A DNA stretch of 64,000 nt, taken from Alphaproteobacteria bacterium (GTDB lineage: Bacteria; Pseudomonadota; Alphaproteobacteria; Rs-D84). Positions within the stretch are counted from its first letter, which is position 1; each line of letters starts with the position of its first letter. Below are positions 33,938 to 55,473 of the stretch, one piece after another. The position numbers and the translations under genes were made by a program. The stretch lies in contig JAFQTD010000016.1 in the NCBI GenBank assembly GCA_017409215.1, positions 5,128 to 69,127 of the forward strand, written 5' to 3'. The notes beneath the pieces were generated by a model. That model had not been told where the DNA came from and ran no database searches. It was given only the letters and a program-made list of their open reading frames with translations.

Positions 33938-36900
33938 ATGCCAAAAAATAAAACAAACAGTATAAAAAAACCATATTTTATTACAGATAGCGAAAAATCT
34001 TTTAAACCAAATTCTAGAAGCATAATAGACCTAAACAAAGAAACAGAAGATCTATTAAATGCTTCTATATACTCTAATGCCATCAAAAAAGCCATTGAAA
34101 ACGCCCCTATCGACAACGGAACCTTTATCATAGGGATTTTCGGAGAATGGGGAATTGGCAAATCCACAATTATCAAAAATATTAAAGAAGAGCTAGAGTC
34201 GCAAGCTAAGCGAAAGAAATGCTATAAATTTATTATTTATGATGCATGGAAATTTGTAAAAGACAGTTTCAGAAGATCTTTTTTATTATACTTGGTTGAT
34301 GCTTTACTCTTGAACAAAACGCCTTATATGGAGAAAATCTACCAAAACAAAACCGAAGAAACTAATATAACTGTTAAATATAACTCAAAAAAATTCTGGT
34401 ATTTTACAGTTTTTCCTTGGATATTAAGTTTAGTTTCTATTGTTTGTATATGGGCATACGGGACGGGAAATGATACCTTAAAAATAATTTCAAGTATTAT
34501 ATTTCCTTTTATTTCATTGATTATAAATTCTCTCGGAAAAATTTTTGATGAATTAAAAACAACAAAACAAACGCCGGCAATATTCTCCGCTGAGCAGTTT
34601 ACAGAATGTTTTGCTGAAATATTGGCACAAAGCCTAAAAAAAACTAACTTTATAAAAAGAATTTGTAATTGGGTCAACGGCACTCCAACTTATGATAAAC
34701 TAATTATAGTAATAGACAATATTGACAGATGTAGTGCAGATACAACTTACGAACTCCTAAGTACCATCAAAACGTTTTTAATAAATCACGATAATCTAAT
34801 TTTAGTCATTCCGGTTGACGAAGTCGCCTTGTGCGAGCATTTACAATCCAGATTTGATAACAAACCAGATAGAGCAAAAGAATTTCTCCGCAAAATATTT
34901 AATTTAGAAGTTCGTATAAAGCCATTAGACAGCGTTGAATTATATGAATTTACTAACAAAATAAATCAAGACTATGATCTTGATTTCTCACCAGATGCCA
35001 TAGATATTATATCAAAAGAATATGCAACCAATCCAAGAAGGATCATTCAATTTTTTAATAACGCCCAAACCGAATGGGATATTGTCACACAAAGAATAAA
35101 AAACTTTTCCCCCAAAGACACAATATTAGCCAGAAATACGATGTGCAAATTACTGATTATTCGTGAAGAATGGCCATTTTACTATGAGCAAATAAGAAAA
35201 GATCCTAAAAAACTATTATCTGGTAAGTATACAAACAAACCAAATGAACAAAATAACCTTGCGCTAGATACATTTTTAAGGTCAACAGAATTCTATCCAA
35301 TACTAACAGATGAATTTAAATTGAACAGAATAATATCTAATAATAACATGTTTGATGCTTTGCCTATACAAACATTAGAAGACTTAAAGTCATTCGACAT
35401 TCCAAAACTTACCGCATTTATAAAAGCATCTAGTGAAAATGAAACAAAAACTTTCAAATATTTAGAAACGCAAATAAAAAATGCTATAAAACGTAATATT
35501 ACTGGTACCACAGCCACATTATTCAAATTTATATTGCAAATAAATAGAGCTATAGGCGGACTTTCAGAACAAAATAATATACGATTACAAACTATCCTAA
35601 ATGAACATGTTGGCCCCATCGTTTCTACCATACTAGAAAAAACACCAATAGAACACTTTGCTGACGAATTAATAGAATATATAAACGCACAAAATCAAAG
35701 TAAGCGCACATATTTATTCCACGAGATAATGAATAACTGTATTATTCCTACTATAAAAATCCCCCAAACATACGAAAAATACACCCCAACAAATACAGAT
35801 TTGCTATATGCAAAACTAATAACCAGTATCACAGACAAAAAATTATTCGATAAATATAAAAAACATTTCTGCCTATGGAAACAATATATATCAGACGACA
35901 TTGTCAATATTAACAACATAGCAGCAACAGACTTACAATACTTTATTACAAACGATTTTCAAGAAGAGCTCATAAACGGAATAAAATTGACCGAAAACGA
36001 CGAAACTACGCACTTAGATACTATAATACATTTACTAAACAACTATAGACAAAATAAATCATTGATACAAAACATCTTTAGCAAACTGAATACAATATAC
36101 CCAAACTATACTGTGGGTCAAAAAAGTAAAAGTATAAAGTTTCTTAAAAACGTATTAGAATTACTGAAAGTAATAAAACCGCAAAACATAGGTGACGAAC
36201 TTCATTCCTTAATAAAAAAACTCTTATATTCCAGAACATATGGACAAACCATCGTCACACACGAAACATATGCAGATAAAGACGAATATATAAAGATGAT
36301 AGACATTTTATGCAAACTACTTAATTTTTCATTGGACAATCGATCTTCATATAATGCACAAACCGAACTAAATACATTATTAATCTCCTATTTGGAGCGA
36401 CTTATAAATCGAAATATAGAATTGCAAACAGATTTACTTCACTCCATAAAAACAAATATTACAAACCCTCAAGCTTCTATATATAAGCTTGCTAATTTAA
36501 TATTTGGGAAAAAAATTTATAACAACGATTATTGCTCTATCATGAAAGACATTGTAGTATGGCACTATTCCAACCGAGACATAAACTCTCCAGAATATTG
36601 GTGTATTGCTGATAACGCATTAGCTACAGAAATACATAATTTGTTATCAGAACTAAAAACATCTAACACGACTCAAAAGACTTTGTTTCAAGATTTGATA
36701 GACTATTTAAGTAAAAAAAGAAAAAACTGCATCGATTCTGTACTACAAACAATAAACGACTGCGCTATTATTGCCAACTTACCATCCCAATCAAAGATAA
36801 TAGCAATGCAACACATATATACAAATTTGCACGAATACGAATCCAACACAATGATGTTAAAACTAGTGGCCCAAAACGCCGATGTTGAAACTATCAAAAA

Positions 36901-37030
36901 CTTAGTGGAAGGCATACTGTTAAAGAAAATGCTATCACCTGACACAAAAGAAATGGCATTAGAAATTTTTGATTCTATCCCAAAGAATAAGTCCACAAAA
37001 TATAGACGCAAAATAAATGCATTAAAATAA
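33938..37030 (+). CDS. KAP-family P-loop NTPase with two TM helices and a long C-terminal region
   Basis: GEWGIGKST; YDAWK; TM pair; IDNIDRC; FLRKIF; NPRRI. Confidence 0.88.
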   Translation: MPKNKTNSIKKPYFITDSEKSFKPNSRSIIDLNKETEDLLNASIYSNAIKKAIENAPIDNGTFIIGIFGEWGIGKSTIIKNIKEELESQAKRKKCYKFIIYDAWKFVKDSFRRSFLLYLVDALLLNKTPYMEKIYQNKTEETNITVKYNSKKFWYFTVFPWILSLVSIVCIWAYGTGNDTLKIISSIIFPFISLIINSLGKIFDELKTTKQTPAIFSAEQFTECFAEILAQSLKKTNFIKRICNWVNGTPTYDKLIIVIDNIDRCSADTTYELLSTIKTFLINHDNLILVIPVDEVALCEHLQSRFDNKPDRAKEFLRKIFNLEVRIKPLDSVELYEFTNKINQDYDLDFSPDAIDIISKEYATNPRRIIQFFNNAQTEWDIVTQRIKNFSPKDTILARNTMCKLLIIREEWPFYYEQIRKDPKKLLSGKYTNKPNEQNNLALDTFLRSTEFYPILTDEFKLNRIISNNNMFDALPIQTLEDLKSFDIPKLTAFIKASSENETKTFKYLETQIKNAIKRNITGTTATLFKFILQINRAIGGLSEQNNIRLQTILNEHVGPIVSTILEKTPIEHFADELIEYINAQNQSKRTYLFHEIMNNCIIPTIKIPQTYEKYTPTNTDLLYAKLITSITDKKLFDKYKKHFCLWKQYISDDIVNINNIAATDLQYFITNDFQEELINGIKLTENDETTHLDTIIHLLNNYRQNKSLIQNIFSKLNTIYPNYTVGQKSKSIKFLKNVLELLKVIKPQNIGDELHSLIKKLLYSRTYGQTIVTHETYADKDEYIKMIDILCKLLNFSLDNRSSYNAQTELNTLLISYLERLINRNIELQTDLLHSIKTNITNPQASIYKLANLIFGKKIYNNDYCSIMKDIVVWHYSNRDINSPEYWCIADNALATEIHNLLSELKTSNTTQKTLFQDLIDYLSKKRKNCIDSVLQTINDCAIIANLPSQSKIIAMQHIYTNLHEYESNTMMLKLVAQNADVETIKNLVEGILLKKMLSPDTKEMALEIFDSIPKNKSTKYRRKINALK

Positions 37031-37044
37031 AGAGTATAGCTGCA

Positions 37045-38025
37045 TTAATATTTACGGAATAAAAAGTTTTTATGTCCAGACAAGTACCATTGGAACAAAT
37101 GCTGGACATCTTCTGTGGTTAAGTCATACTTTGGTATCCAATTCGCAAACGGGAAATCCCGTGTCATAAAATCATCATACGCACGTCTGCGTGTCGACAA
37201 CAATGCCTGTAAATTTTTGAGTATACTTTTATCAATACCGCTGATATTTTCTGATTTAGACCGCCGTATATCACGCACCGTACTTTTAATCAATGGCATA
37301 TCGGCATAAATATCGCGATATGCCATATACCACATATCGCACTGATGTCGCATTCGGGCGCATAATTCCACAGATTTCTGCAACATCTCAACCGTTGGGC
37401 GTTCATACGCCCGAAGTTGTAAAGTCTGCTGATACACCATTTCACGCTGACCGTCCGATAAACCCATTGTATCCCAACCGGTCTCCACATCTACCCAGAA
37501 CTCAAATTCTGCAAAAACCGCACATCTAATACGTTCGGCCCACAACGACACTTCTTCCATGATATTAAAATACGCAATTGCTTCCAGCATGCCGACAGCA
37601 CCAATCGCACGAATACGACTAACCTGTTCCTGTTTCAAAACGCCCATATTTAATTTTAGTCTGTCACGTTTGTTCGCATAGTCGCGCGCAGCATCTGGTT
37701 CTATAAAGCCGTCCGCCAAGAACCTGTCCCAAAACATTTGAGCCAACTGCTTACCTTCAGCTTTATGCACCTCTTTTAATACAACCAATATATTTTTCAA
37801 ATCCCCCTTGGTTGCGCCATTTACCAGATTTTTAAACATAGCATCCATTTTGGTCATTTTTTGACCATCTTTGGTCTGAACAACTTCGTTCATCTCACGC
37901 AACAAAACATCACTATATCCCGTCTTAGGCTTTGGCGGTCGCCCCATCGGGTTTCCTGAACGTCCCTTTTGAAATTGTCCACTTTTTGGCGGTTTGCGGT
38001 ATCCAACTGTATAATCTTTATTCAT
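37045..38025 (-). CDS. DUF5681 (TerS-like) domain protein with C-terminal extension
   Basis: VGYRKPPKSGQFQKGRSGNPMGRP. Confidence 0.85.
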   Translation of the reverse strand: MNKDYTVGYRKPPKSGQFQKGRSGNPMGRPPKPKTGYSDVLLREMNEVVQTKDGQKMTKMDAMFKNLVNGATKGDLKNILVVLKEVHKAEGKQLAQMFWDRFLADGFIEPDAARDYANKRDRLKLNMGVLKQEQVSRIRAIGAVGMLEAIAYFNIMEEVSLWAERIRCAVFAEFEFWVDVETGWDTMGLSDGQREMVYQQTLQLRAYERPTVEMLQKSVELCARMRHQCDMWYMAYRDIYADMPLIKSTVRDIRRSKSENISGIDKSILKNLQALLSTRRRAYDDFMTRDFPFANWIPKYDLTTEDVQHLFQWYLSGHKNFLFRKY

Positions 38026-39322
38026 TTCTTGCCCCCATCAATAATTCATTATATGTACGTTCCAAACCCACATTCACCGCATTTTTACCCGTCAACTTTT
38101 GCCAGCGCAGTATTGCAACATCAACATACTTGGGTTCTATCTCAATCCCGCGACAAACGCGCCCAACCCGTTCACATGCCAATAAAGTGGTTCCTGAACC
38201 TAAGAATGAATCTAGCACCACATCACCACGGTTAGTCACATCCATAATCGCATCTGCAACCATCTGAACATTTTTCACCGTTGGATGCAGTTTCAAATCA
38301 TCACGATTTTCACCAAAACTGTTTACCCCCGGATAATCCCAAACATTTGTACGATAACGACCATTCGCCCCAAGTTCCACATTGTTGATATGTGGCGCAC
38401 GACCATTTTTATAAACAAATATCAGTTCATGCTTTGACCGATATAACGATCCCATACCCCCAGACGCCTTATTCCACACGCACAGATTCTTCATTTCTGT
38501 ATAAACATCATCACAGGCTGCTGTAATCTCTATAATATGTCGCCAATCCATGCACAAATAATGCAACGAACCATCAACAGACCAATCACGCAGATTTGTA
38601 AATGCCGTCCGCAGGAATTGTGTAAACTGCTCACGCGACATTTCGCCAGATGCCATCGCAAATTCATCATGATGTACACGTCCTGCACCACATACATGTC
38701 CATCAACAGGTACATTATATGGCGCATCTGCAAACACCATCTGGGCAAGAAGGCCATCAGACATCAGCTTTTCAAAACTTTCGCATTTTAATGCATCACC
38801 GCAATAAATCAAATGCTGGCCCAATCGCCACAAATCCCCAGGGCGCGAAACAATGTGTCCATTATCAACATCCGGCATATCATCGGCATGGTCATACTCC
38901 ATCAAGTCATCATTTTGTCCCTGAATCAAAACATCTAATTCGGCCGTTTCAAAACCAATAACATCCAGGTTAAAGTCCAAATCAGACAAATCTTTCAGTT
39001 CCAGCCCCAACAAATCCCTGTCCCAATCACCATTTATCGTCAGTTGATTGTCTGTTATACGATATGCGCGCTTTTGGGCATCTGTCAAATAATCAATCCG
39101 TACACATGGCACAGAATCCAAACCTAACTTTTTAGCCGCCAATAAACGCCCATGCCCCGTTAACAAGACATTATCTTCATCAACCAGCAACGGATTAGTA
39201 AAATCAAATTCAGTAATAGAATTTGCAATTTGACAAACGTGTTTATCGTTATGCAATCGCGCATTACGAGAATACGGTCTAATATCACATGGGTTTTGAT
39301 ATATAATTTTTAATTCTGTCAT
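38018..39322 (-). CDS. ParB-like domain plus N6/N4 DNA methyltransferase
   Basis: PY.RNAR.H; GHGRL.AA; DAPYN; HPTVKN; DSFLGSG. Confidence 0.9.
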   Translation of the reverse strand: MTELKIIYQNPCDIRPYSRNARLHNDKHVCQIANSITEFDFTNPLLVDEDNVLLTGHGRLLAAKKLGLDSVPCVRIDYLTDAQKRAYRITDNQLTINGDWDRDLLGLELKDLSDLDFNLDVIGFETAELDVLIQGQNDDLMEYDHADDMPDVDNGHIVSRPGDLWRLGQHLIYCGDALKCESFEKLMSDGLLAQMVFADAPYNVPVDGHVCGAGRVHHDEFAMASGEMSREQFTQFLRTAFTNLRDWSVDGSLHYLCMDWRHIIEITAACDDVYTEMKNLCVWNKASGGMGSLYRSKHELIFVYKNGRAPHINNVELGANGRYRTNVWDYPGVNSFGENRDDLKLHPTVKNVQMVADAIMDVTNRGDVVLDSFLGSGTTLLACERVGRVCRGIEIEPKYVDVAILRWQKLTGKNAVNVGLERTYNELLMGARNE

Positions 39323-39641
39323 ACATATTCCTTTCTTTATCAAACATATTCACCAGAAAGGAAGTACATAATATGTACGGAATAGCAAGGAAAGGCAAAA
39401 AATGCCTTGTACACATTATGACATCCTTTCCTTTACTTTCCGAAACCATCATACACAAAACACGCGAACAAAGCAAGAAAAACCGCAGTTTTCTGCGGCT
39501 TTGAAAAGAGAATCTCTTTTTTTATTTTTTATAGAAATATCACCCTGATAATTCCCTGTTTTTATAAAAGCGCCCCAAATAAAGCCGACATAAAAAATAT
39601 CTTCAACATAAATTTTTTTACTAATTTCTGCAGGGTAAAAC

Positions 39642-39670
39642 TTGAATAAGAACATATTCTATGATAGAAT
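39642..39670 (+). promoter_or_regulatory. Sigma70-type promoter of the structured leader
   Basis: TTGAAT-17bp-TAGAAT. Confidence 0.7.
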
Positions 39671-39850
39671 CGGTGCGATGCATGGGATCATCTTGCATTG
39701 GGGTGTAGTAACCCATTTACGAGCGTCTGCAGAGACGATAAAAACTCCAACCATATTTGGTTGGAGGGTTGTGAATATATTGAATAAGCAACACAATTCT
39801 CGTAAATTGTTACTAACCTCCAACCACCAATCCCATTTGGTGGTTTTTAA
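39671..39850 (+). ncRNA. Structured c4/CI-like antisense RNA plus attenuator leader (candidate)
   Basis: Multiple hairpins; TAGTAAC and ATTTACGAG are complementary to downstream CTCGTAAAT-T-GTTACTA; GGTTGGAGG/CCTCCAACC overlaps the terminator AACCACCAA..TTGGTGGTT-TTT. Confidence 0.65.
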
Positions 39851-39870
39851 CTGATACGGAGGATACGTAC

Positions 39871-40359
39871 ATGTCGCAATTTTTTATAAAAACATTCATT
39901 GCCTATGCGCTGGTTCTAATTCTTTCTGGATGCGGCATGGGGCCAGGATACGAATTAAAATATACTGATGGCGCATACAAATGCACCTATCAAGAAAACG
40001 TCAATTATTTGATAAATGATAAATACTTTGAAATATCTGACTATGAAAATGACAAAAATAAAGCACAATCTGCGTGCAAATCTATTCAGAAAAAATTAAA
40101 AAACAAGCATAGATGTCTGGATTATGTAGAAATTGATTCACTAAACAAACAGTCATACATCGGGATATTCTTTGCCAACCGCCTTTATCAACAATGTATC
40201 GCAAACGACAATGATGACTGCCTAAAATATTACCCTTTTGCAGACTGTATAGCTGCTAAATGCACATATAAATCACAAAAAATAAAATACCAAAAATACA
40301 AACAAGAAGATTGGATATCTGATGACGATTGGTCTGCTTGCACGCAACAACACCTATAA
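39871..40359 (+). CDS. Cys-rich lipoprotein
   Basis: Lipobox LSGC; GGAGG RBS. Confidence 0.75.
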   Translation: MSQFFIKTFIAYALVLILSGCGMGPGYELKYTDGAYKCTYQENVNYLINDKYFEISDYENDKNKAQSACKSIQKKLKNKHRCLDYVEIDSLNKQSYIGIFFANRLYQQCIANDNDDCLKYYPFADCIAAKCTYKSQKIKYQKYKQEDWISDDDWSACTQQHL

Positions 40360-40372
40360 CTAAAGGATTACT

Positions 40373-40973
40373 ATGACGCGTGGAATTATATATGTAATGT
40401 GGAATGAACTGTTCCCGGAACTTGTAAAAATAGGCATAACCAAAGGCAATTCATCAACAGATGTTGAAAAACGTCGCAGAGAATTATCTTGTGGTGAAAA
40501 CATGCCACAACCATTTGAAGCCAAGTTTGCAATTTGTGTTAACAATTACGAAAAAATAGAACGTATAATTCACAAGGGGTTAACGAAATTGCGTCACAAC
40601 CCACATCGGGAATTCTTTAAATTAAGTGTGGACGAAGCCATAAACCTGTTATCAGGCTATATAATCAGTGGCAGTGCCGTTGAAGTCCCAATCAAAAACT
40701 CTTTCAAATCCGATGAGAAAGCAGCAATCAAAAACATGCAAAAACAACGTGACAGCATATCGTTCCGTTCTTTAAATATACCAGTTGGCACAACATTAAC
40801 GTTTGCAAACGCAAAACACCTGACAGTTAAGACAGCCAATGACGGGCGTCGCATAATTTTACCAAATGGGAAAACCGCCACATTATCCATCGCCGCCAAA
40901 AGATTTCACATACCGTGGCAAAACCCTGTGGGAATTGTCGCTAGAAAAACAACGCACCAACATCGAAGCATAA
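40373..40973 (+). CDS. T5orf172/GIY-YIG domain protein, apparently frameshifted near 40900
   Basis: GIIYVM.N..FPELVKIGIT; E..IH..L...R.NP.REFF; an alternative frame gives FTYRGKTLWEL..* followed by a terminator. Confidence 0.7.
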
Positions 40974-41000
40974 TAAAACCGCCCAACTGGGCGGTTTGTT

Positions 41001-41273
41001 TTAAACGGCCTTACACAATGTACAATCCACATAAAACGGCGTCACGTTATTAGGATTGTTGCATTCTGCACACAAGGGAACAATATAAACAGTGTCATCA
41101 AAACTTTCATATTTACGCACATGCGCCCCATGCTCTGCACGTTTCGTGCAACCACAACACGCACAATAAACAGCATGGTTTCCTGTTTTCTTTTCCCAAT
41201 ATTCCAACCAAGATGAATACAAAAATGGCGGATTCATATTGGCCGTTCTTCTTGCATTTATTACTTTGAACAT
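41001..41273 (-). CDS. Small Cys-rich HNH-like protein
   Basis: CACCGC...GAHV...YIVPLCAECN. Confidence 0.6.
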   Translation of the reverse strand: MFKVINARRTANMNPPFLYSSWLEYWEKKTGNHAVYCACCGCTKRAEHGAHVRKYESFDDTVYIVPLCAECNNPNNVTPFYVDCTLCKAV

Positions 41274-41610
41274 AATTTTACCTCCTATTTCAAAGCATTT
41301 TCACAAAAATGGAAAATCCTTTTGCGAAATGTAAAATTATGATAAAATTACACCGTACTCGAATCGGATTTTCCGGTTTATTTTCGTCTTCGGGTTCAGC
41401 GCTAACAAAAACCCGAAGGCGGAAGTTTAAAAATCAACATATAGTTTTTATTTCCAAACTTCACATACAACATATTGAGAAAAAGTGCAAAAATCTAGGT
41501 ATTTTTTTGCATTTTTAACACATTTTTTCCTTTACTTTTAAAAAGCTATGTTTTCCGCCCATCACAGACCTTCAACCTACTGAAAAACCAACGTTTTTTA
41601 TTCGTTTTTC

Positions 41611-41646
41611 AACTTGACTTACCTGTGTTTGTAAGCAGTAATTGCG
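41611..41646 (+). promoter_or_regulatory. Island-conserved promoter motif, copy 1
   Basis: AACTTGACT-N14-AGCAGTAATTGC. Confidence 0.65.
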
Positions 41647-41672
41647 TAACCTTATAAACACAGGAGTAAAAC

Positions 41673-41867
41673 ATGCCAAAATATCCAGAAATAACGGTAC
41701 CATTAACCAACCGCGATGGCAACGCATTCGCCATCTTAGGACGTTGCCAAACCGCACTACGTTTGGCAAAAAAGTTAGATAAATGGCCCGAATTTTATAC
41801 CCAGGCCACCAGTGGTGACTATACCACCCTACTAATTACAGTTATGAAATGGTTTACGGTGGAATAA
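41673..41867 (+). CDS. Small phage-like hypothetical protein
   Basis: DGNAFAILGR...SGDY..LL; AGGAG RBS. Confidence 0.7.
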   Translation: MPKYPEITVPLTNRDGNAFAILGRCQTALRLAKKLDKWPEFYTQATSGDYTTLLITVMKWFTVE

Positions 41868-42353
41868 ATGTCATATTATCACACATCAAAACCAGAAACA
41901 TTAGCCGAACTGCGCCGACTGCCATTTGCACAGCGCGCCACCATGTGGGAAAAGTACACAGGATATACATTCCATCGTCAAAATACTGCATTGTGGTATT
42001 ACATCCAATGCGAACGCAAAAAACTTAAAATCGCAGCTAAACACATCAATAAAATTCAAACATATATCAACAATCCAGACAAATGCCTGACACAAATACC
42101 CAAGAACCGATACAACCTACACCCAGGCAAAACGATGACCAAAGAATTTCACGGGACAACCCATAATGTATTGGTCGCTGACGGATATTTCCTGTATCAC
42201 GACAAAATGTACAAAACATTATCCGCTGTTGCACGTGCAATCGCGGGCTTCAAGGTATCTGGGCCCGACTTTTTCGGCCTTGTAAAAAGGAAATCACAAT
42301 GCAAAAAATTAAATGCGCAATCTATACCAGAAAATCCACAGAACATGGACTAG
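41868..42353 (+). CDS. DUF2924 domain protein
   Basis: L.PG....KEFHG..H.V.V..G.F.Y....YKTLSAVARAIAG...SGPDFFGL. Confidence 0.85.
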   Translation: MSYYHTSKPETLAELRRLPFAQRATMWEKYTGYTFHRQNTALWYYIQCERKKLKIAAKHINKIQTYINNPDKCLTQIPKNRYNLHPGKTMTKEFHGTTHNVLVADGYFLYHDKMYKTLSAVARAIAGFKVSGPDFFGLVKRKSQCKKLNAQSIPENPQNMD

Positions 42354-43873
42354 AACTAGAATTTAATTCCCTGCAAAATCAAGAAGAATCCTGTAAAGCA
42401 TATATCGCATCACAGGCATTTAATGGTTGGGAATATGTCAAAACATATTCAGACGCTGCAATTTCTGGTGGCACAATGTACCGGCCTGCATTACAACAAA
42501 TGCTGACTGATATGGCACATGGATTGATAAATACAGTCGTTGTGTACAAGGTCGACCGCCTATCACGTTCCATACTAGATTTTCACAAAATGATGCAATA
42601 TTTTGAAAAACACAATGCAAATTTTGTATCAATAACCCAATCATTTGACACATCAAATTCCATGGGCAAATTAACACTGAACATGCTGTTGTCCTTTGCC
42701 CAATTTGAACGTGAAGTATCCAGTGAACGTGTTCGCGATAAATTATATGCCAGCAAAGCAAAAGGAATGTGGATTGGCGGATTACCAACATTGGGGTACA
42801 ATCTGGAAGACAAAAAACTGGTTATCAACCCGACCGAAGCAGAAACAGTAAAACATCTGTTTGAAAAATATCTAGAATTAGAATCTGTGGTTGAATTGGC
42901 ACAATATGCACGAAAAAACGGGATAAAAAATAAATACTGGATAACACAAAACGGCACACCGCACGGTGGTGGGGAATTATACCCCAGCATTTTACATCGT
43001 CTATTGCGGGACAAAGTATACATTGGTAAAATCACACATAAAAAAACAAGTGAAGTGTTTGACGGAATACACAAACCAATAATCACCCAAGAATTGTTCG
43101 ATCAAGTCCAAAAAGTACTGGAAAAGAACGCAAATCATCGCCATAAAAACACACGCAGTTCCGCAAACCTACTAAGCAGAAAATTATTTGATGTAAACGA
43201 TTGCCGTTTCATAAATCAAATGACACTTAATCGCGGCAAAGGCGATAAATACTATTATGCAATCCCAGGCTTTTATATATCCGCCCCAACTGTTGATGAA
43301 ATCATAAGTACTAAAATCACAGATTTTTTGAACAGCGATATGAACACGTTGCCTGAATCCGCCAAAACAATCCTGAAAAGCATCGATATAAATACAATGC
43401 TGTTTGAACGCAAACGAGAATTGTTCAGAACGCTTATTGAAAAAGTTATTTATACGGACAACTTGTTAACCATATACTTGAACACAACCAACGAAAATCT
43501 AACCCAATATTCAACCACAGGTTTTATAAATCAAAATTTTAACACTATGGATTATACGATCGTCAATAACACAATCATCATAAAGGCGGCAATTATCATA
43601 CGCAAAACCAATCACAACAACGCAATTACTGTAACCCACAATAACCACCTAATAATGCATGCGATTGCAACCGCATTCAAATATCGTAAAATTTATGAAC
43701 AAACCGGCTCTATAACCCAAATAATGAAATCCGACAAAATATCAAACCGCACCGCATACCGCTATCTAAGTATTGCGTACATGAATCCAAATGTATTGAA
43801 CGAGATTATGGATGGCAAACTGGGGTGCAATGTTGATGAGCTGTATGCGCTGGCGGCAAAAAATCAATTATAA
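42299..43873 (+). CDS. Large serine recombinase (island integrase)
   Basis: CAIYTRKST; VVYKVDRLSRS; LLSFAQFERE; G.W.GG.P.LGY. Confidence 0.95.
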   Translation: MQKIKCAIYTRKSTEHGLELEFNSLQNQEESCKAYIASQAFNGWEYVKTYSDAAISGGTMYRPALQQMLTDMAHGLINTVVVYKVDRLSRSILDFHKMMQYFEKHNANFVSITQSFDTSNSMGKLTLNMLLSFAQFEREVSSERVRDKLYASKAKGMWIGGLPTLGYNLEDKKLVINPTEAETVKHLFEKYLELESVVELAQYARKNGIKNKYWITQNGTPHGGGELYPSILHRLLRDKVYIGKITHKKTSEVFDGIHKPIITQELFDQVQKVLEKNANHRHKNTRSSANLLSRKLFDVNDCRFINQMTLNRGKGDKYYYAIPGFYISAPTVDEIISTKITDFLNSDMNTLPESAKTILKSIDINTMLFERKRELFRTLIEKVIYTDNLLTIYLNTTNENLTQYSTTGFINQNFNTMDYTIVNNTIIIKAAIIIRKTNHNNAITVTHNNHLIMHAIATAFKYRKIYEQTGSITQIMKSDKISNRTAYRYLSIAYMNPNVLNEIMDGKLGCNVDELYALAAKNQL

Positions 43874-44050
43874 TCCCCACGAACTGGCAGTGCGAAAAAG
43901 CCCATTGGATGTAAATGGGGCTTTTTTATGCATTTTTGCATCCGCAAAAACACATCCGTTTGCACACATCAAAAAACATCACCCGCAACCCCGCAGAACT
44001 CTGGGATATAAAAAATAAACGTGTGCCGAACACACGTCTATTATTATCTC

Positions 44051-44127
44051 TGGTCGGGGCGAAAGGATTCGAACCTTCGACACCTTGGTCCCAAACCAAG
44101 TACTCTACCAGACTGAGCTACACCCCG
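44051..44127 (-). tRNA. tRNA-Pro(TGG)
   Basis: Reverse complement CGGGGTGTAGCTCAGTCTGGTAGAG...TT TGG GA...GGTTCGAATCC...CGACCA. Confidence 0.97.
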
Positions 44128-50520: not shown

Positions 50521-52221
50521 TTATGAACTTAATGTTCCGTTTTTAGCTTTCTCTACCAAATTTTCTACAAATACTTTTATCTTGCTTTGATCGTGATACG
50601 TATAGTTGTCACTTATATCCCTTTTTAATTGTTCTATATCATCCTTGGACATATTTGCTGTATTTTCAGAAAAAGATTTTGTTGGGTCGTAATTTTCTTT
50701 GTGCGGCATTATATCATCTGGTTCTAAGATGTCTTCAAAAACACACCTTTGGGGTAAAATGTTCAATATATCTTTAACAGAAAACAAATTAGTGCATTCA
50801 ATTCCTAATTCTTTAGCAACTTCTTGAATTTGTTTTTTTATTTTATTTCCACCAGTATCTTCATCGTGTATAACCGTTAAATTAAGGTTGTCTATAGATG
50901 AATATCTGTACATTTTTGGCATTTCAGAACCGTTACAACTTTGAATGAAAATTTCCCTTATGTTCATGCTTTCTAGAACTTTATTTAATATAATTTTATC
51001 CGTGTTACCTTCAACTAATACTATGTATTGTGGCAAAAGTTCTTTCCAATAATTTAAGCCGAATCCGACTCTCATAACTTCATCACTCAATATATATGAG
51101 TCTGATTTTGCTCGTTCAATCGTTGTTTTGCCTTTCTTTTTAGAAACTACAATATGACTTTCAGGGGTTGTCTTATCGATCATAAAAGGCGAATGAGTAG
51201 CGCATATGATAACATTGTTTTTACTCATCCCAATAAGACGATCCCTTAAAAATTGGATTCCACTAGGATGTAAATGAACATCCGGTTCGTCTAATAAAAT
51301 AATACTGTTTTCAATATCTTTTGTAGCTTCTTCACAAGATACAGATAATATGAACGAAATGAATTGTCTAAAACCATCGCTTCTATCTTTTGTATCAAAT
51401 AATATACTTTCTCGGTCCTTGTCTTCGATTAAACATGTACAAATACCAGTTTGTTCTATATCTATATTTATTTTTACATTAGCCTCGAAAGATTTCCAAA
51501 CGGCTTTAAAATGTTTATTAATTGCCGACTCTAATTGTCTGCTTATAGTTTTTCGATTGCTAGCATCTTTTAAATCACCTAAGTTATAAATATCTAACTT
51601 TGCCAACTTAAAAATATTTTCTATTGGCTTGTTTTTTAATGTTTTATTTATTATTTGATTCAAATCAATTGATGATGGCAATAAAAATTCTTCACTATAA
51701 TCCCAATATATAATTTTGGGTTTATTTGGAGCTATTACCTCGTTCCATAAGAATTTATCATGTTCTTCTTTTATTTGTTCTAATGTTGAATCACCAGTAT
51801 ACCAAGCGTTGTTAAGATAATACCTATTATTTTTGATACCAGTTGACGACAACTCAAAATTATATATTATGTGCTTGATATCATCAAATTTTTTTATACT
51901 GAGCCCCTTTTGTTCGGCAAATATTTGAGATTTTTCTTGTAATAATTTATTAGTAGCTTTATCTATTTCAAAATATATTTTGACTTCTACAATATTATCT
52001 TCTGCATTATTAACATTCGGCTTATACATGGTTTTTGTATACTTAAGTTCTGATGAGTATACATTGTTGATAGCCTGTAAAATTGAACTTTTCCCAGATT
52101 CGTTCAAGCCGATAAGAAGATTAAACGCTCGTTCTGATTTATCTTTGTTTTGATAAAATCTATCAATAGTTAAATTTTCTATACTTCTAAAATTATGAAT
52201 AGTAATTTTTTCTAATTTCAT
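50521..52221 (-). CDS. OLD-family-like ABC ATPase plus TOPRIM nuclease
   Basis: I.NFRSI; GLNESGKSS; SDG; LLDEPDVHLHP; THSPF; LVEGNTD; DED. Confidence 0.85.
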   Translation of the reverse strand: MKLEKITIHNFRSIENLTIDRFYQNKDKSERAFNLLIGLNESGKSSILQAINNVYSSELKYTKTMYKPNVNNAEDNIVEVKIYFEIDKATNKLLQEKSQIFAEQKGLSIKKFDDIKHIIYNFELSSTGIKNNRYYLNNAWYTGDSTLEQIKEEHDKFLWNEVIAPNKPKIIYWDYSEEFLLPSSIDLNQIINKTLKNKPIENIFKLAKLDIYNLGDLKDASNRKTISRQLESAINKHFKAVWKSFEANVKINIDIEQTGICTCLIEDKDRESILFDTKDRSDGFRQFISFILSVSCEEATKDIENSIILLDEPDVHLHPSGIQFLRDRLIGMSKNNVIICATHSPFMIDKTTPESHIVVSKKKGKTTIERAKSDSYILSDEVMRVGFGLNYWKELLPQYIVLVEGNTDKIILNKVLESMNIREIFIQSCNGSEMPKMYRYSSIDNLNLTVIHDEDTGGNKIKKQIQEVAKELGIECTNLFSVKDILNILPQRCVFEDILEPDDIMPHKENYDPTKSFSENTANMSKDDIEQLKRDISDNYTYHDQSKIKVFVENLVEKAKNGTLSS

Positions 52222-52407
52222 TTGTGACCTCTTATTATCATGTAACATAATATTTTTTGCCTAAAAAATCCAGTTTTTTATTGGTAAATTGAAATAGTTA
52301 TATATTTTTTCACAAAATCAAAAAAATTTTTCAAGGCAGCTGGTCGCAACAATGTATATTATTAAGAATAAGGGTATTCCTTATTCGTTAAACATAAGGA
52401 GTATACT

Positions 52408-53673
52408 ATGCTTTTAACAATTGTTGATAAAAACATTAATCAAATTAAACCATATAAAAACAACCCAAAACTTCACAGTAAACATCAGATTAAACAGATT
52501 GCGGATTCTATTAAAGAATTTGGATTTGTGAACCCTGTGTTGTTGGATGAAAATGGGGAAATCATAGCTGGACATGGACGATATTTGGCTGCAAAACAGT
52601 TAAATATGGAAAATATCCCCACAATAACACTGTCTCATTTAAATGATGAGCAGAAACGTCTGTATCGCATTGCCGATAACAAACTGACCGAATTAGGCAA
52701 ATGGGATGTGTCTTTGTTGCAAATGGAATTTAAAGAACTGGAAAATTTAAATCTGGATCTAGAAATTACAGGGTTTGAAACCGAAGAAATAGATAACTTT
52801 ATTATAAATAAGTCTGGTCCTACAAATCTGAAAGAAGAACATATCCCAGAATTATCAACTAACGATTACCAATGCAAATTTGGTGATATATGGCAATTGG
52901 GTCGACATTTCCTTATTTGTGGTGATGCATTAAAAGCGAAAACGTATGCAAATTTAATAGGAAACAATCGTGCCCAAATGATTTTAACAGATCCACCATA
53001 TAATGTCCGTGTAAAAGATATTGGTTCAAGCGGTAAAATTAAGCATGATGAATTTGCGATGGCATCTGGCGAGATGTCATCTGATGAATTCATCACGTTT
53101 TTAAATACATTTATGAAACATGCAAAAGAATATTCCATCGATGGTTCTTTGCATTACTTGTTTATGGATTGGCGACACGGAATAGAAATTGGTCTGGCCG
53201 CATCAATCGTTTATGAAGAATTAAAAAACATCTGCGTTTGGGTCAAAAACAATGGTGGTATGGGCAGCCTGTATCGTTCACAGCATGAATTGTGCTTTAT
53301 ATACAAAAACGGCAAAGGCCCACATACGAATAATATAAATCTGGGGGCGCATGGGCGATATCGCACAAATGTTTGGGAATACGCAGGTGCCAATGGTTCC
53401 GCAGATGGTAAAGAAAATTTAAAATTACACCCAACGGTTAAGCCCGTTGCAATGTTAAAAGATGCAATTCTGGATGTCACAAAACGTGGCAATATTGTAT
53501 TGGATTGCTTCTTGTGGTCTGGTTCAACCTTAATCGCATGCGAACAAACAGGTCGTACATGTTATGGCATCGAAATAGAACCAAAATATTGTGATGTGAC
53601 AATTAAACGTTATGAAGAACTAACCGGTGAAAAAGCCATAAAAATAGGAGATGCAGATGACAGGATATGCTAA
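52408..53673 (+). CDS. ParB-like domain plus N6/N4 DNA methyltransferase
   Basis: AGHGRY.AA; DPPYN; HPTVKP; the SAM motif reads FLWSG. Confidence 0.9.
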   Translation: MLLTIVDKNINQIKPYKNNPKLHSKHQIKQIADSIKEFGFVNPVLLDENGEIIAGHGRYLAAKQLNMENIPTITLSHLNDEQKRLYRIADNKLTELGKWDVSLLQMEFKELENLNLDLEITGFETEEIDNFIINKSGPTNLKEEHIPELSTNDYQCKFGDIWQLGRHFLICGDALKAKTYANLIGNNRAQMILTDPPYNVRVKDIGSSGKIKHDEFAMASGEMSSDEFITFLNTFMKHAKEYSIDGSLHYLFMDWRHGIEIGLAASIVYEELKNICVWVKNNGGMGSLYRSQHELCFIYKNGKGPHTNNINLGAHGRYRTNVWEYAGANGSADGKENLKLHPTVKPVAMLKDAILDVTKRGNIVLDCFLWSGSTLIACEQTGRTCYGIEIEPKYCDVTIKRYEELTGEKAIKIGDADDRIC

Positions 53674-54031
53674 CCCACCAAAAGAAACACAATTCAAAAA
53701 AGGACAATCTGGTAATCCCAAAGGACGTCCCAAGGGCGATAAAAATTATTTGGCTCTTGCAAACAGAGAGTTATCACAAAAGGTTTCAATTATGGAAAAT
53801 GGTCGACGTAAAACACTTAGCAAAAAGGAGGTGTTTGTCAAAACGACGATAAACAAGGGTATTGCTGGCGATAAAAAATTTACAAATATTGCATATACAA
53901 TGATGCAGGATGCCGAAAGATATAATGAACGCAAAAAACACGATGAAAAAGAACAGTCTAAAATAAATCAGAAAATTATTGAAAATTTCCGAAAACGGGT
54001 TTTAGAAGAGAATAAAGAGGTGGAAGAATGA
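53657..54031 (+). CDS. DUF5681 (TerS-like) protein
   Basis: GY.NPPKETQFKKGQSGNPKGRPKG; directly upstream of TerL. Confidence 0.85.
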   Translation: MTGYANPPKETQFKKGQSGNPKGRPKGDKNYLALANRELSQKVSIMENGRRKTLSKKEVFVKTTINKGIAGDKKFTNIAYTMMQDAERYNERKKHDEKEQSKINQKIIENFRKRVLEENKEVEE

Positions 54032-55473
54032 CACAAAATCTGGCTAATGCTTTAATAAAGGAAGATTTTTACAGTTTTGTGCAACGGGCTTATTTTGAAA
54101 CAAGCGGTGGGCAAATACTGATTCCAAATTGGCACATTGAAATATTGTGTGATCGGCTGGAAAAAGCACGCAAAGGCGAAATAAAACGTCTTATTATAAA
54201 TGTTCCGCCACGCAGTTTAAAATCACAAATTGTAAATGTTGCATTTACCGCTTGGGTATTAGGTCATAATCCAACAGAAAAAATTGTTAGCGCATCGTAT
54301 TCTGCAGAATTAGCGGAAACTTTTGCACGCGATTGCAAACGTGTTATGCAATCTGAGTGGTATAAACAACTATTTCCGAAAAGTGAGATTTCAAATGACC
54401 AATCGTCAGCCTATGATTTTAAAACAATTTCACGCGGTGGACGCTTTGCCGCATCTGTCGAAGGATCTTTAACGGGTCGCGGCGGCAATATAATAATCAT
54501 CGACGACCCGATAAAAACAACAGATATGGCAAATGAGAATGCCCTAAATAAAGTACAAGAATGGTATACGGGTACACTGTTAAGCCGTTTAGATAATCAA
54601 GAATACGGGGTGATTATTTTGATAATGCAACGTGTTCACGAAAACGATTTAACAGGTTATCTGTTAGATAAAGAGTCTGATAAATGGGAGCATATAGTTA
54701 TGCCTATGATTGCAACCGAAGAAGAACAATGGGAAGTTGAGAATAAAACTTTTATAAGGCATAAAGGCGATGTATTAAACAAGCAATATATCAGTTTTGA
54801 AAAGTGTAATGAATTAAAAACAGAATTAGGGGAATATGTATGGAATGCCCAATATCAACAAGAACCATGTCCTGTTGGGGGTGGTATCGTAAAAGAAGAA
54901 TGGATGCAATATTATCCAAACCAACGTTTGAATCCTGATGAAGTTTATAAAATATTATTAAGTTGGGATACAGCTAATAAAACAGGAGAAAACAATGCAT
55001 ATTCTGCTTGTTCTGTCGTAGCAGTAATGAGAAACAGGACATTTTATTTGTTACAAGTTGCGCGTGCCCGACTGGATATGACCAAACTCTTAGAATCTGT
55101 TTTGCAAGCATACAATTCTGTAGTTCAAGAGTCTGGATTTTTCAGAATCAAACCAGTATTACTAATAGAAGATGCTGCGAGCGGAACTCCGCTTATAAAT
55201 TTGTTAAGAAATTTAAAAGATATATATGGCCGCGTATTAAATATCGAGGCAATAAAGCCTAAAGGGAATAAAATTGACCGACTTTATGGTATAACACCAT
55301 ATATTGAAAATGGACAATTGTTGTTTCCGCCAGATGGTGTGGAAGGGAAAGAACGATGGTGGCCAGATTTTAAAAAAGAATTGTTAAGCTTTCCAAATTC
55401 AAAATATAAAGATCAAGTTGATTCTTTGACACAGGCTATTTCATATGCTCAAGAATTATTGGCATACCAATAA
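54028..55473 (+). CDS. Phage terminase large subunit
   Basis: RLIINVPPRSLKS; TGRGG.IIIIDDP; MQRVHE.DL.G; AQYQQ.P; SWDTA; EL..FP..KY.DQVD. Confidence 0.92.
   Translation: MTQNLANALIKEDFYSFVQRAYFETSGGQILIPNWHIEILCDRLEKARKGEIKRLIINVPPRSLKSQIVNVAFTAWVLGHNPTEKIVSASYSAELAETFARDCKRVMQSEWYKQLFPKSEISNDQSSAYDFKTISRGGRFAASVEGSLTGRGGNIIIIDDPIKTTDMANENALNKVQEWYTGTLLSRLDNQEYGVIILIMQRVHENDLTGYLLDKESDKWEHIVMPMIATEEEQWEVENKTFIRHKGDVLNKQYISFEKCNELKTELGEYVWNAQYQQEPCPVGGGIVKEEWMQYYPNQRLNPDEVYKILLSWDTANKTGENNAYSACSVVAVMRNRTFYLLQVARARLDMTKLLESVLQAYNSVVQESGFFRIKPVLLIEDAASGTPLINLLRNLKDIYGRVLNIEAIKPKGNKIDRLYGITPYIENGQLLFPPDGVEGKERWWPDFKKELLSFPNSKYKDQVDSLTQAISYAQELLAYQ

Follow-up and report, generated by a model that had tools for sequence, protein, structure and literature searches.

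The window analyzed here is a stretch of 64,000 nucleotides (nt) from contig JAFQTD010000016.1 of a draft alphaproteobacterial genome (assembly GCA_017409215.1). Positions 39642 to 39870 of the window, on the plus strand, lead into a gene for a predicted lipoprotein and contain a promoter, a series of hairpins and an intrinsic terminator. The transcribed part is a structured leader RNA of approximately 170 nt. Related leaders recur throughout this genome and its relatives as a cassette of fixed order, namely sigma-70 promoter, 5′ hairpin, ~170-nt structured leader, intrinsic terminator, ribosome-binding site (RBS) and gene. The parts of the window copy are listed below with the basis of each assignment, and the helix names and segment numbers are used throughout the text.

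39642..39670, plus strand: sigma-70-type promoter with −35 TTGAAT, TG and −10 TAGAAT (sequence, promoter scan, conservation across copies).
39677..39699, plus strand: P0, the 5′-terminal hairpin, whose sequence varies between copies while pairing is kept (RNAfold).
39700..39714, plus strand: segment 0 (GGGG, 39700–03) and the local hairpin Pa (39701–04 with 39711–14) (covariation).
39715..39723, plus strand: X (AUUUACGAG), which supplies the 5′ side of P2, a long-range helix specific to each copy (100% complementarity; cognate versus noncognate duplex test).
39724..39744, plus strand: P3 hairpin CGUCU-GCAG-AGACG (39724–37) and the conserved A-rich linker AUAAAAA (39738–44) (RNAfold, alignments).
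39745..39768, plus strand: P4 hairpin, segment 1 CUCCAACC (39745–52) with segment 2 GGUUGGAGGG (39759–68) (complementarity, covariation).
39768..39792, plus strand: P5, a 4-bp stem (39768–71 with 39789–92) capped by the conserved 17-nt loop UGAAUAUAUUGAAUAAG (39772–88).
39793..39810, plus strand: P6 hairpin ACAAUU/AAUUGU (39793–98 with 39805–10) (RNAalifold, covariation).
39811..39825, plus strand: 3′ strand of P1b, UACUA (39811–15), and segment 3, CCUCCAACC (39817–25) (covariation).
39822..39848, plus strand: intrinsic terminator, AACCACCAA (39822–30), loop UCCCAU, UUGGUGGUU (39837–45) and UUU (39846–48) (RNAfold, complementarity).
39858..40359, plus strand: Shine-Dalgarno sequence (SD) and the first controlled gene, a predicted lipoprotein of 162 amino acids (aa) with lipobox LSGC and no Pfam family.
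40373..41053, plus strand: second gene of the unit, a 226-aa T5orf172/GIY-YIG-like protein (PF10544, E = 6.4e-14).

A preliminary description of this DNA, made from its letters alone, had listed the promoter and the hairpins, and both could be read directly. The −35 element (39642–39647) and the −10 element (39665–39670) are separated by a 17-nt spacer, with TG at 39662–39663, and a promoter scan scored the site at 9/12 matches with TG. By itself the scan performed no better than chance, with 11 sites vs 9.1 expected. Upstream of 113 copies of the leader, the promoter is conserved as TTG at −36 to −34, TGnTATAAT at −16 to −8 and G at −1 in 74%. Transcription likely starts at G39677.

Five local hairpins are present: P0, GGGU-GUAGUA-ACCC (39701–39714), CGUCU/AGACG, CUCCAACC(A)/(U)GGUUGGAG (39745–39766; 9 nt, 100% complementary) and AACCACCAA/UUGGUGGUU (39822–39845; 100% complementary). 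With the U-run behind it, the last hairpin forms a terminator with a 9-bp stem, 10 nt before the SD. The SD is GGAGG at 39858–39862 and the start codon is the ATG at 39871, which amends the earlier account. RNAfold gave −70.1 kcal/mol for 39677–39875 vs a shuffled mean of −45.7 (standard deviation 4.2; z = −5.88), and 0 of 200 shuffles were as good. The minimum-energy fold is a multibranched domain closed by a long-range helix, followed by the terminator hairpin, the U-run, GGAGG and ATG. A structured leader ending in a terminator just 5′ of the RBS, as first described, is thus supported by both direct reading and folding.

Long-range complementarity within the leader is also real. X pairs with Y (CUCGUAAAU, 39799–39807) over 9 nt with 100% complementarity, and Y consists of the P6 loop plus the first bases of the P6 3′ arm. 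The window copy holds a second long-range complement, GUAGUAAC/GUUACUA, which belongs to the 80%-complementary pair UUGGGGUGUAGUAAC/GUUACUAACCUCCAA. The pair GGUUGGAGGGUUGU/ACUAACCUCCAACCA, to which the pairing of GGUUGGAGG with CCUCCAACC belongs, is 87% complementary. Several strands have a choice of partner. GGGG of segment 0 can pair locally in Pa, whose loop contains the P1b 5′ strand (UAGUA, 39706–10), or with CUCC of segment 3 to form helix P1a. GGUUGGAGG in segment 2 can pair with CUCCAACC just upstream or with CCUCCAACC beside the terminator, so that segment 2 doubles as the 5′ strand of an antiterminator. Segment 3 can either pair with GGGG while contributing to the terminator or pair with segment 2.

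The P4 hairpin together with the conserved A-rich linker reads as an intrinsic terminator on the opposite strand (39745–39766, minus), and a simple terminator scan listed the CUCCAACC hairpin as terminator-like on that strand. Each leader copy may therefore also halt antisense transcription arriving from downstream.

A leader family with two covarying sets of helices

BLAST of the 234-nt element against its own genome (1.13 Mb, 37 contigs, 40% G+C) found 15 places, and matches occurred in 33 of 36 genomes of the same genus. A covariance model was then built from a MAFFT alignment of 19 copies. In the own genome this model returned 28 matches, 20 of them with E < 1e-6, and four of those 20 are cut by contig ends. 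Across the order, 135 of 151 genomes had a match, including 106 of the 107 in the genus, for a total of more than 1,200 matches, with no more than 17 counted per genome. Outside the order, 13 of 149 genomes from other alphaproteobacterial families were hit, eight with E < 1e-10, and the distant copies retain the entire architecture. The order that carries the family is probably Rs-D84 (Candidatus Enterousia and relatives), and the own genome probably belongs to it. Records with the conserved motif are labeled Candidatus Enterousia, uncultured Alphaproteobacteria or Rickettsiales bacterium, and all are metagenome-assembled genomes from animal or human gut. The element had been described as a device of one island ("Island 1"). 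It is instead present in ~20 copies in its own genome and has more than 1,200 matches in the 151 related genomes, before many unrelated genes.

Unlike a plain repeat, the aligned copies keep their architecture while the helices change freely. For a seven-helix structure, the MAFFT alignment of 19 copies (not fitted to the model) shows 90.8% pairing and changes on both sides at 24 of 43 pairs; none of 500 shuffles reached these values. The model found 115 matches in 100 fetched loci, and these were aligned to its structure to give the 115-copy alignment from which the figures per helix are taken. Here the terminator fold (fold T) is 94.4% paired with 34 of 43 pairs changed on both sides (0/500 shuffles), and slid controls are only 39–53% paired. 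Pairs changed on both sides are found throughout P0 (6/6; 93.3% of cells paired), P3 (5/5), P5 (4/4), P6 (6/6; 93.4% paired) and P1b (5/5; 99.1% paired). P4 is 94.7% paired. P1a is 92.4% paired with one-sided changes only, and the two terminator helices are 87.7% and 96.7% paired, with an A-U to G-C change at one pair in 38 copies. The conserved G-U pairs, for example in 106 of 115 copies at one P1a pair, indicate that the structure is strand-specific and point to RNA rather than a DNA repeat.

The helices that exclude fold T covary as well. Pa and the antiterminator, which lie outside the model, are together 96.6% paired with 9 of 13 pairs changed on both sides, and again no shuffle of 500 reached this. 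Pa contributes four of four such pairs at 92.9% pairing, through partner swaps in which segment 3 stays unchanged: GGAG with ACUCC, GAGG with ACCUC, and GGAU with AUCC. The antiterminator is a 9-bp helix between segments 2 and 3, 97.9% paired over the 115 copies, with changes on both sides at 5 of 9 pairs. One of its pairs, which lies outside P4, is GC in 83 copies, UA in 18, UG in 7, AU in 1 and other in 6. Segments 1, 2 and 3 are nearly invariant or change in concert, and at least five variants occur: CUCCUGAC, CUCCUGCC, CCCCGACC, CCCGACC and UUCCUGCC. We take this concerted change to mean that selection acts on the 1:2 pairing and on the 2:3 pairing alike. The alternative pairing of GGUUGGAG in the preliminary description, either upstream or across the base of the terminator, is accordingly upheld. 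Covariation among homologs had been proposed there as a check, and it is present in the terminator fold and in the competing helices alike.

The X:Y helix behaves differently. Both strands differ in nearly every copy yet match within each copy. In a duplex test, cognate pairs averaged −7.9 vs −1.4 kcal/mol for noncognate pairs; the cognate partner ranked first in 76 of 112 copies and third or better in 99. The partner of X is the P6 loop, all of whose bases are paired in the median copy, and in 100 of 107 copies the pairing extends 1–5 nt into the 3′ arm of P6. P6 itself covaries, so P6 and the extended long-range helix also compete. This pattern is that of a helix under purely structural constraint in a paralogous family and is no proof by itself of trans-acting specificity. 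The conserved segments are those with alternative pairings, as expected under double constraint. X and Y had been proposed as an antisense segment and its target, acting as a bipartite pair on the transcript. They form instead an intramolecular, copy-specific helix that closes the terminator fold, with no sign of trans action.

Taken together, these copies almost certainly represent a conserved structured RNA family. The family is uncatalogued. It is a new family of a known kind, the cis-acting attenuator leader, with an unusual copy number and a three-layer bistable design. In the literature on Enterousia that was covered (metagenome surveys and excerpts of PMC12306168), and in further searches, one of them poorly aimed, there was no description of the leader RNA.

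Several arrangements of copies were observed beside the single cassette. Tandem copies 40–80 nt apart occur in the own genome (G000:C6:34285–34467 and 34530–34706, locus L033) and at loci L128, L125 and L080. A promoter-like stretch for the second copy lies between the members in three of these four pairs; the fourth, L125, has a 25-nt spacer. Another genome carries three copies in a row (G062:C1:71248–71917). Loci L009 (G036:C5:33121–33299) and L101 have a core, from UGGGG to the terminator, that is 87% identical to window positions 39697–39848 and has the same X:Y. They differ from the window copy in promoter, P0 and downstream gene (a 383-aa protein without a Pfam family), and leader cores therefore seem to be exchanged between cassettes.

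Proposed attenuation and its alternatives

The probable reading, in our view, is that the leader is a terminator/antiterminator attenuator acting in cis, OFF by default and responsive to an effector. An intrinsic terminator lies between promoter and RBS and is kept throughout the 115-copy alignment. A mutually exclusive helix, itself covarying, consumes one strand of that terminator. Transcription would start near G39677, at the foot of the 5′ hairpin, and the leader would adopt one of two mutually exclusive folds. In fold T, X would pair with Y, and this helix, extended by P1b and GGGG:CUCC, would close the multibranched domain. GGUUGGAGG would be locked in the P4 hairpin, and the terminator would form and stop transcription ~10 nt before the RBS. 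In fold A, GGGG would be held in the local GGGU/ACCC hairpin with P6 intact, and GGUUGGAGG would pair with CCUCCAACC. This antiterminator would remove the 5′ base of the terminator and let RNA polymerase continue into the gene. Which fold wins is probably settled while the RNA is being made. Nucleation of the long-range closure by X:Y could tip the balance, or an effector (a protein, a small molecule or a physical signal) could hold fold A.

Calculated energies place fold T at −66.5 kcal/mol in the window copy vs −48.2 with the antiterminator forced, and the gap is 11–13 kcal/mol before the terminator 3′ arm is made. Over 111 copies, fold T is favored by a median of 13.0 kcal/mol, or 9.4 before the 3′ arm; in 13 of them the truncated-transcript gap is at most 3 kcal/mol. 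Because fold T is the ground state, we infer that the default is OFF. Expression data were assembled contigs of four runs, and contigs give no starts, ends or levels. One 649-nt metatranscriptome contig matches 39683–40331 with 8 differences, beginning 6 nt past the predicted start and crossing the terminator into the lipoprotein gene. It agrees with the predicted start and with read-through, as a weak hint given that the library may contain DNA. A contig of the DNA run also breaks nearby, at 39656. High depth at 39740–39813 arises because the conserved core attracts sequence from other copies, and it appears in the DNA run as well.

A number of observations count against attenuation as we propose it. 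The large energy gap means that switching to fold A would need kinetic control or a strong stabilizer. Domain searches of the own genome, a draft that is 96% complete, yielded no effector candidate; GGDEF, DAC, RelA/SpoT, Hfq, ProQ and a NusG paralogue were not found, where absence from a draft is no proof, and CsrA gave only a subthreshold match below the family cutoff. The RNA evidence comes from contigs of one library that possibly contains DNA. The U-tract of the window copy is short, and the simple terminator scan did not list its plus-strand terminator because only three U follow the 9-bp stem. The 115-copy alignment was fitted to the model structure, which inflates the fold T figures, though the independent 19-copy alignment agrees. 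Variation in P1a and in most of the terminator stem is too low for covariation to prove them. Finally, 15 of the 115 copies have no open reading frame (ORF) by the criteria applied; four of these are first members of tandem pairs whose second copy has its own promoter, and ~8 look like orphan leaders, which a stand-alone RNA would fit better.

The ORF-less and orphan-like copies keep alive a different function, in which the leader is mainly a stand-alone small RNA of ~170 nt, ended by its terminator, made from ~20 strong promoters, and acting in trans or sequestering a protein, with read-through being secondary. The near-consensus promoter and terminator of each copy suit this reading, as do the separate promoters of tandem copies. 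The highly conserved 17-nt loop with its two GAAUA repeats could be a protein site, and all six exact genomic copies of UGAAUAUAUUGAAUAAG lie inside leader copies. However, 100 of 115 copies sit directly 5′ of an SD and an ORF in the same orientation, with no space for a second promoter. A covarying antiterminator would have no role in a pure small RNA, the variable segments X and Y pair inside the same molecule, and the own genome showed neither Hfq nor ProQ, nor CsrA above its cutoff. We regard this explanation as unlikely. A separate trans RNA that would carry GGUUGGAG to free segment 2 was also considered and rejected, since leader copies account for 26 of the 30 genomic sites and truncated copies for 2 more, and the last 2 are at unrelated positions.

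A constitutive structured 5′ untranslated region would require no switch at all. The terminal hairpin and compact fold would shield the mRNA from RNase E, which the genome encodes, and leakage through the terminator would hold expression at a constant low level. P0 does begin at the predicted +1, the terminator fold is thermodynamically dominant, and the effector search was negative. Yet such a leader leaves unexplained why Pa and the antiterminator covary when both exclude the ground-state fold, and why segments 1, 2 and 3 vary hardly at all or only jointly. This makes it an improbable account.

The preliminary description had interpreted the element as a c4/CI-like RNA switch that gates a lipoprotein gene and a T5orf172 gene. 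The leader, the terminator, the alternative pairing and both genes are there; the c4/CI-like nature and the island-specific role are not. In the C4 family (phage P1/P7 c4, P4 CI), short leader-encoded segments are complementary to downstream sites in an element-specific manner, and the output is termination. Under this explanation, a processed antisense piece would bind a bipartite target in its own transcript through two short segments and cause premature termination, with a specificity that differs between mobile elements. The window copy lies in an island, its complementary pair is bipartite and copy-specific, and about a fifth of copies precede XRE-type regulators. As in C4, the complementary segments lie within one transcript and are sequence-specific for each element. 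Unlike C4, the pairing is intramolecular and closes a multihelix domain: the supposed target Y belongs to the same folded domain as X, 75 nt downstream of it, and lies 51 nt before the SD without overlapping the RBS. A helix under purely structural constraint diverges in the same way. The leader also occurs in ~20 copies per genome, most of them before chromosomal genes for secreted proteins and not antirepressors, and has an explicit terminator/antiterminator with three-way covariation. No immunity context with an icd- or ant-type antirepressor was found; the downstream genes are the lipoprotein and T5orf172 genes here, and signal-peptide proteins, small XRE-type proteins and ABC exporters elsewhere. 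Nor did the element match C4, c4-a1b1 or any other Rfam model. The Rfam 15 scan of the whole window at gathering thresholds gave only 3 tRNAs, a permissive scan of 39300–40100 (E up to 10) gave nothing inside 39642–39870, and permissive scans of 16 other copies gave nothing on leader coordinates. We therefore set aside membership in a known RNA family and consider c4-like immunity very improbable.

Least probable of all is a DNA-level dispersed repeat (a miniature inverted-repeat transposable element, a Rickettsia palindromic element or a Correia-like element) that folds by chance. The BLAST picture first suggested it, with numerous partial copies on either strand and at the ends of contigs, and the 87%-identical core joined in another species to another promoter, P0 and gene is compatible with it. 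The idea was dropped after alignment and covariation. In 100 of 115 copies the orientation to the downstream gene is the same, each copy has a conserved promoter of its own, compensatory changes are abundant, and on the opposite strand the conserved G-U pairs would become A-C mismatches. Rickettsia palindromic elements and the Correia elements of Neisseria are dispersed structured repeats, and some such repeats carry promoters. The leader resembles them in its ~150-nt units, strong secondary structure and many copies in a reduced alphaproteobacterial genome, and differs in keeping a constant orientation and place with respect to genes, in having its own promoter and strand-specific G-U pairs, and in covarying helix by helix.

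Two further readings were tried and rejected. An internal promoter in the P5 loop (TTGAAT with a −10-like P6 3′ arm) was discarded, as the spacing varies with the P6 loop length (3–12 nt). A leader peptide was discarded as well, since the 70-aa frame at 39642–39854 starts within the promoter and the alignments show no conservation of candidate start codons behind GGAGG.

For the attenuator reading, classical attenuators (trp, pyr) and protein-dependent antitermination leaders (RAT/BglG, ANTAR, LoaP targets) provide the closest logic, in which 1:2 plus 3:4 oppose 2:3. The leader shares this logic with them, as well as a default terminator just 5′ of the RBS. Unlike them, it has no conserved leader peptide, and it adds a layer in which long-range closure competes with local hairpins (Pa vs P1a, P6 vs the extended helix). 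The search of the own genome gave no NusG paralogue and did not extend to ANTAR or CAT domains. The domain searches showed one NusG, three sigma-70-family genes and one cold-shock-domain gene (contig C30:1066–1260).

T-box leaders are long, structured, present in many copies per genome and sometimes in tandem, with a terminator and an antiterminator that share one strand. Our leader is like them in all these respects. There was no T-box match in the Rfam scans of the window or of other copies, the specifier-loop architecture is missing, the downstream genes are not linked to amino acids, and the variable segment pairs inside the leader and not with tRNA. Regulons of the cyclic di-GMP-I (GEMM) riboswitch in Clostridioides and Geobacter place many copies before genes for surface and secreted proteins. 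The similarity here lies in a dozen or more copies per genome before adhesin-like and secreted proteins of unknown function and in terminator expression platforms, and the difference in the missing Rfam match and the failure to find GGDEF, DAC or RelA/SpoT domains. By copy number and gene class, the family most resembles T-box leaders or second-messenger riboswitch regulons, without matching their models.

Downstream genes, genomic setting and significance

An SD-led ORF in the same orientation lies within a few tens of nucleotides of the terminator in the 100 copies mentioned above. The N-terminus is strongly hydrophobic and signal-peptide-like in 58 of these 100 ORFs by a crude hydropathy test. 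Most downstream genes encode orphan secreted proteins or lipoproteins, and a second class comprises small XRE/Cro-type regulators. When small candidates were picked by eye, 12 of 17 matched HTH_3, HTH_31 or HTH_19 at E ≤ 0.01, and six of them scored above the Pfam cutoff.

In the own genome, leaders precede a repeated two-gene cassette consisting of a signal-peptide protein of 72–78 aa and a protein of 400–745 aa, one of which has PKD domains. Other leaders precede two 312-aa paralogues, an MsbA-like ABC exporter, a DUF378 protein, a small HTH-like protein and several further signal-peptide proteins without a Pfam family. The small secreted proteins of the two-gene family (72–81 aa) share the motif IPSTAYVQQQ, the large partner is variable, and each pair stands behind a leader copy (contigs C34, C36, C8, C4 and C12 of G000; loci L032, L034, L036, L037, L047 and L029). 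It looks like a variable surface-protein system. Several of these copies are at contig ends, which indicates that the family breaks the assembly.

The window copy is surrounded by genes typed as follows. A 1030-aa KAP/QatA-like NTPase (33938–37030) and a ParB-domain DNA methyltransferase (38018–39343, minus) lie upstream, and a large serine recombinase (42299–43873) adjoins a tRNA gene (44054–44127, minus), so that the island context spans 33938–44127. Farther on are a defence-type AAA ATPase (50521–52248), a second ParB-methyltransferase (52408–53673) and a phage terminase large subunit (54028–55473). Genes for tRNA also occur within 1–1.5 kb of several other leader copies (L010, L011, L012, L017 and L190), as in the window, in keeping with an integration of accessory islands at such genes. 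Positions 39476–39554, which separate the leader promoter from the divergent methyltransferase gene (start 39343), include a terminator-like hairpin with a T-run on the minus strand (39502–39479). It overlaps a weak STnc40-like Rfam match (28 bits, E 0.013, below gathering) and could be a small minus-strand RNA or an attenuator for the methyltransferase gene.

According to an excerpt of a published account, Enterousia, of the order Rs-D84, comprises gut bacteria that are uncultured, have genomes of ~0.75–1.0 Mb and lack biosynthetic pathways (PMC12306168). These metabolically dependent gut Alphaproteobacteria appear to have few conventional regulators. In the proposed mechanism, such small-genome bacteria would place the cassette before many of their accessory genes. 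We know of no description of regulation of any kind in them. A bolder extension, which we offer as a possibility and hold to be rather doubtful, is a master-switch riboregulator. A single fold, present 17 times or more in a genome of 1 Mb, would let one signal, sensed by RNA, control most secreted and surface proteins as well as the XRE-type regulators that accessory islands carry. The host or a partner cell might supply this signal as a ligand, or it might be a physical or kinetic cue that needs no protein to be read; the X:Y latch would then be the kinetic element that decides between the folds.

The size of the family, with more than 1,200 matches in the 151 genomes searched, is sufficient for rigorous covariation statistics, structure determination and a hunt for a ligand or protein. 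The covariance model also marks transcription starts and operon heads in genomes composed mostly of orphan proteins. If attenuation is correct, the leader would be a compact natural bistable RNA with three layers, in which a local hairpin opposes long-range closure, P6 opposes the extended helix, and the antiterminator opposes the hairpin and terminator. One uncatalogued RNA family would then govern a large share of the accessory and cell-surface genes in widespread uncultured bacteria of the animal and human gut.

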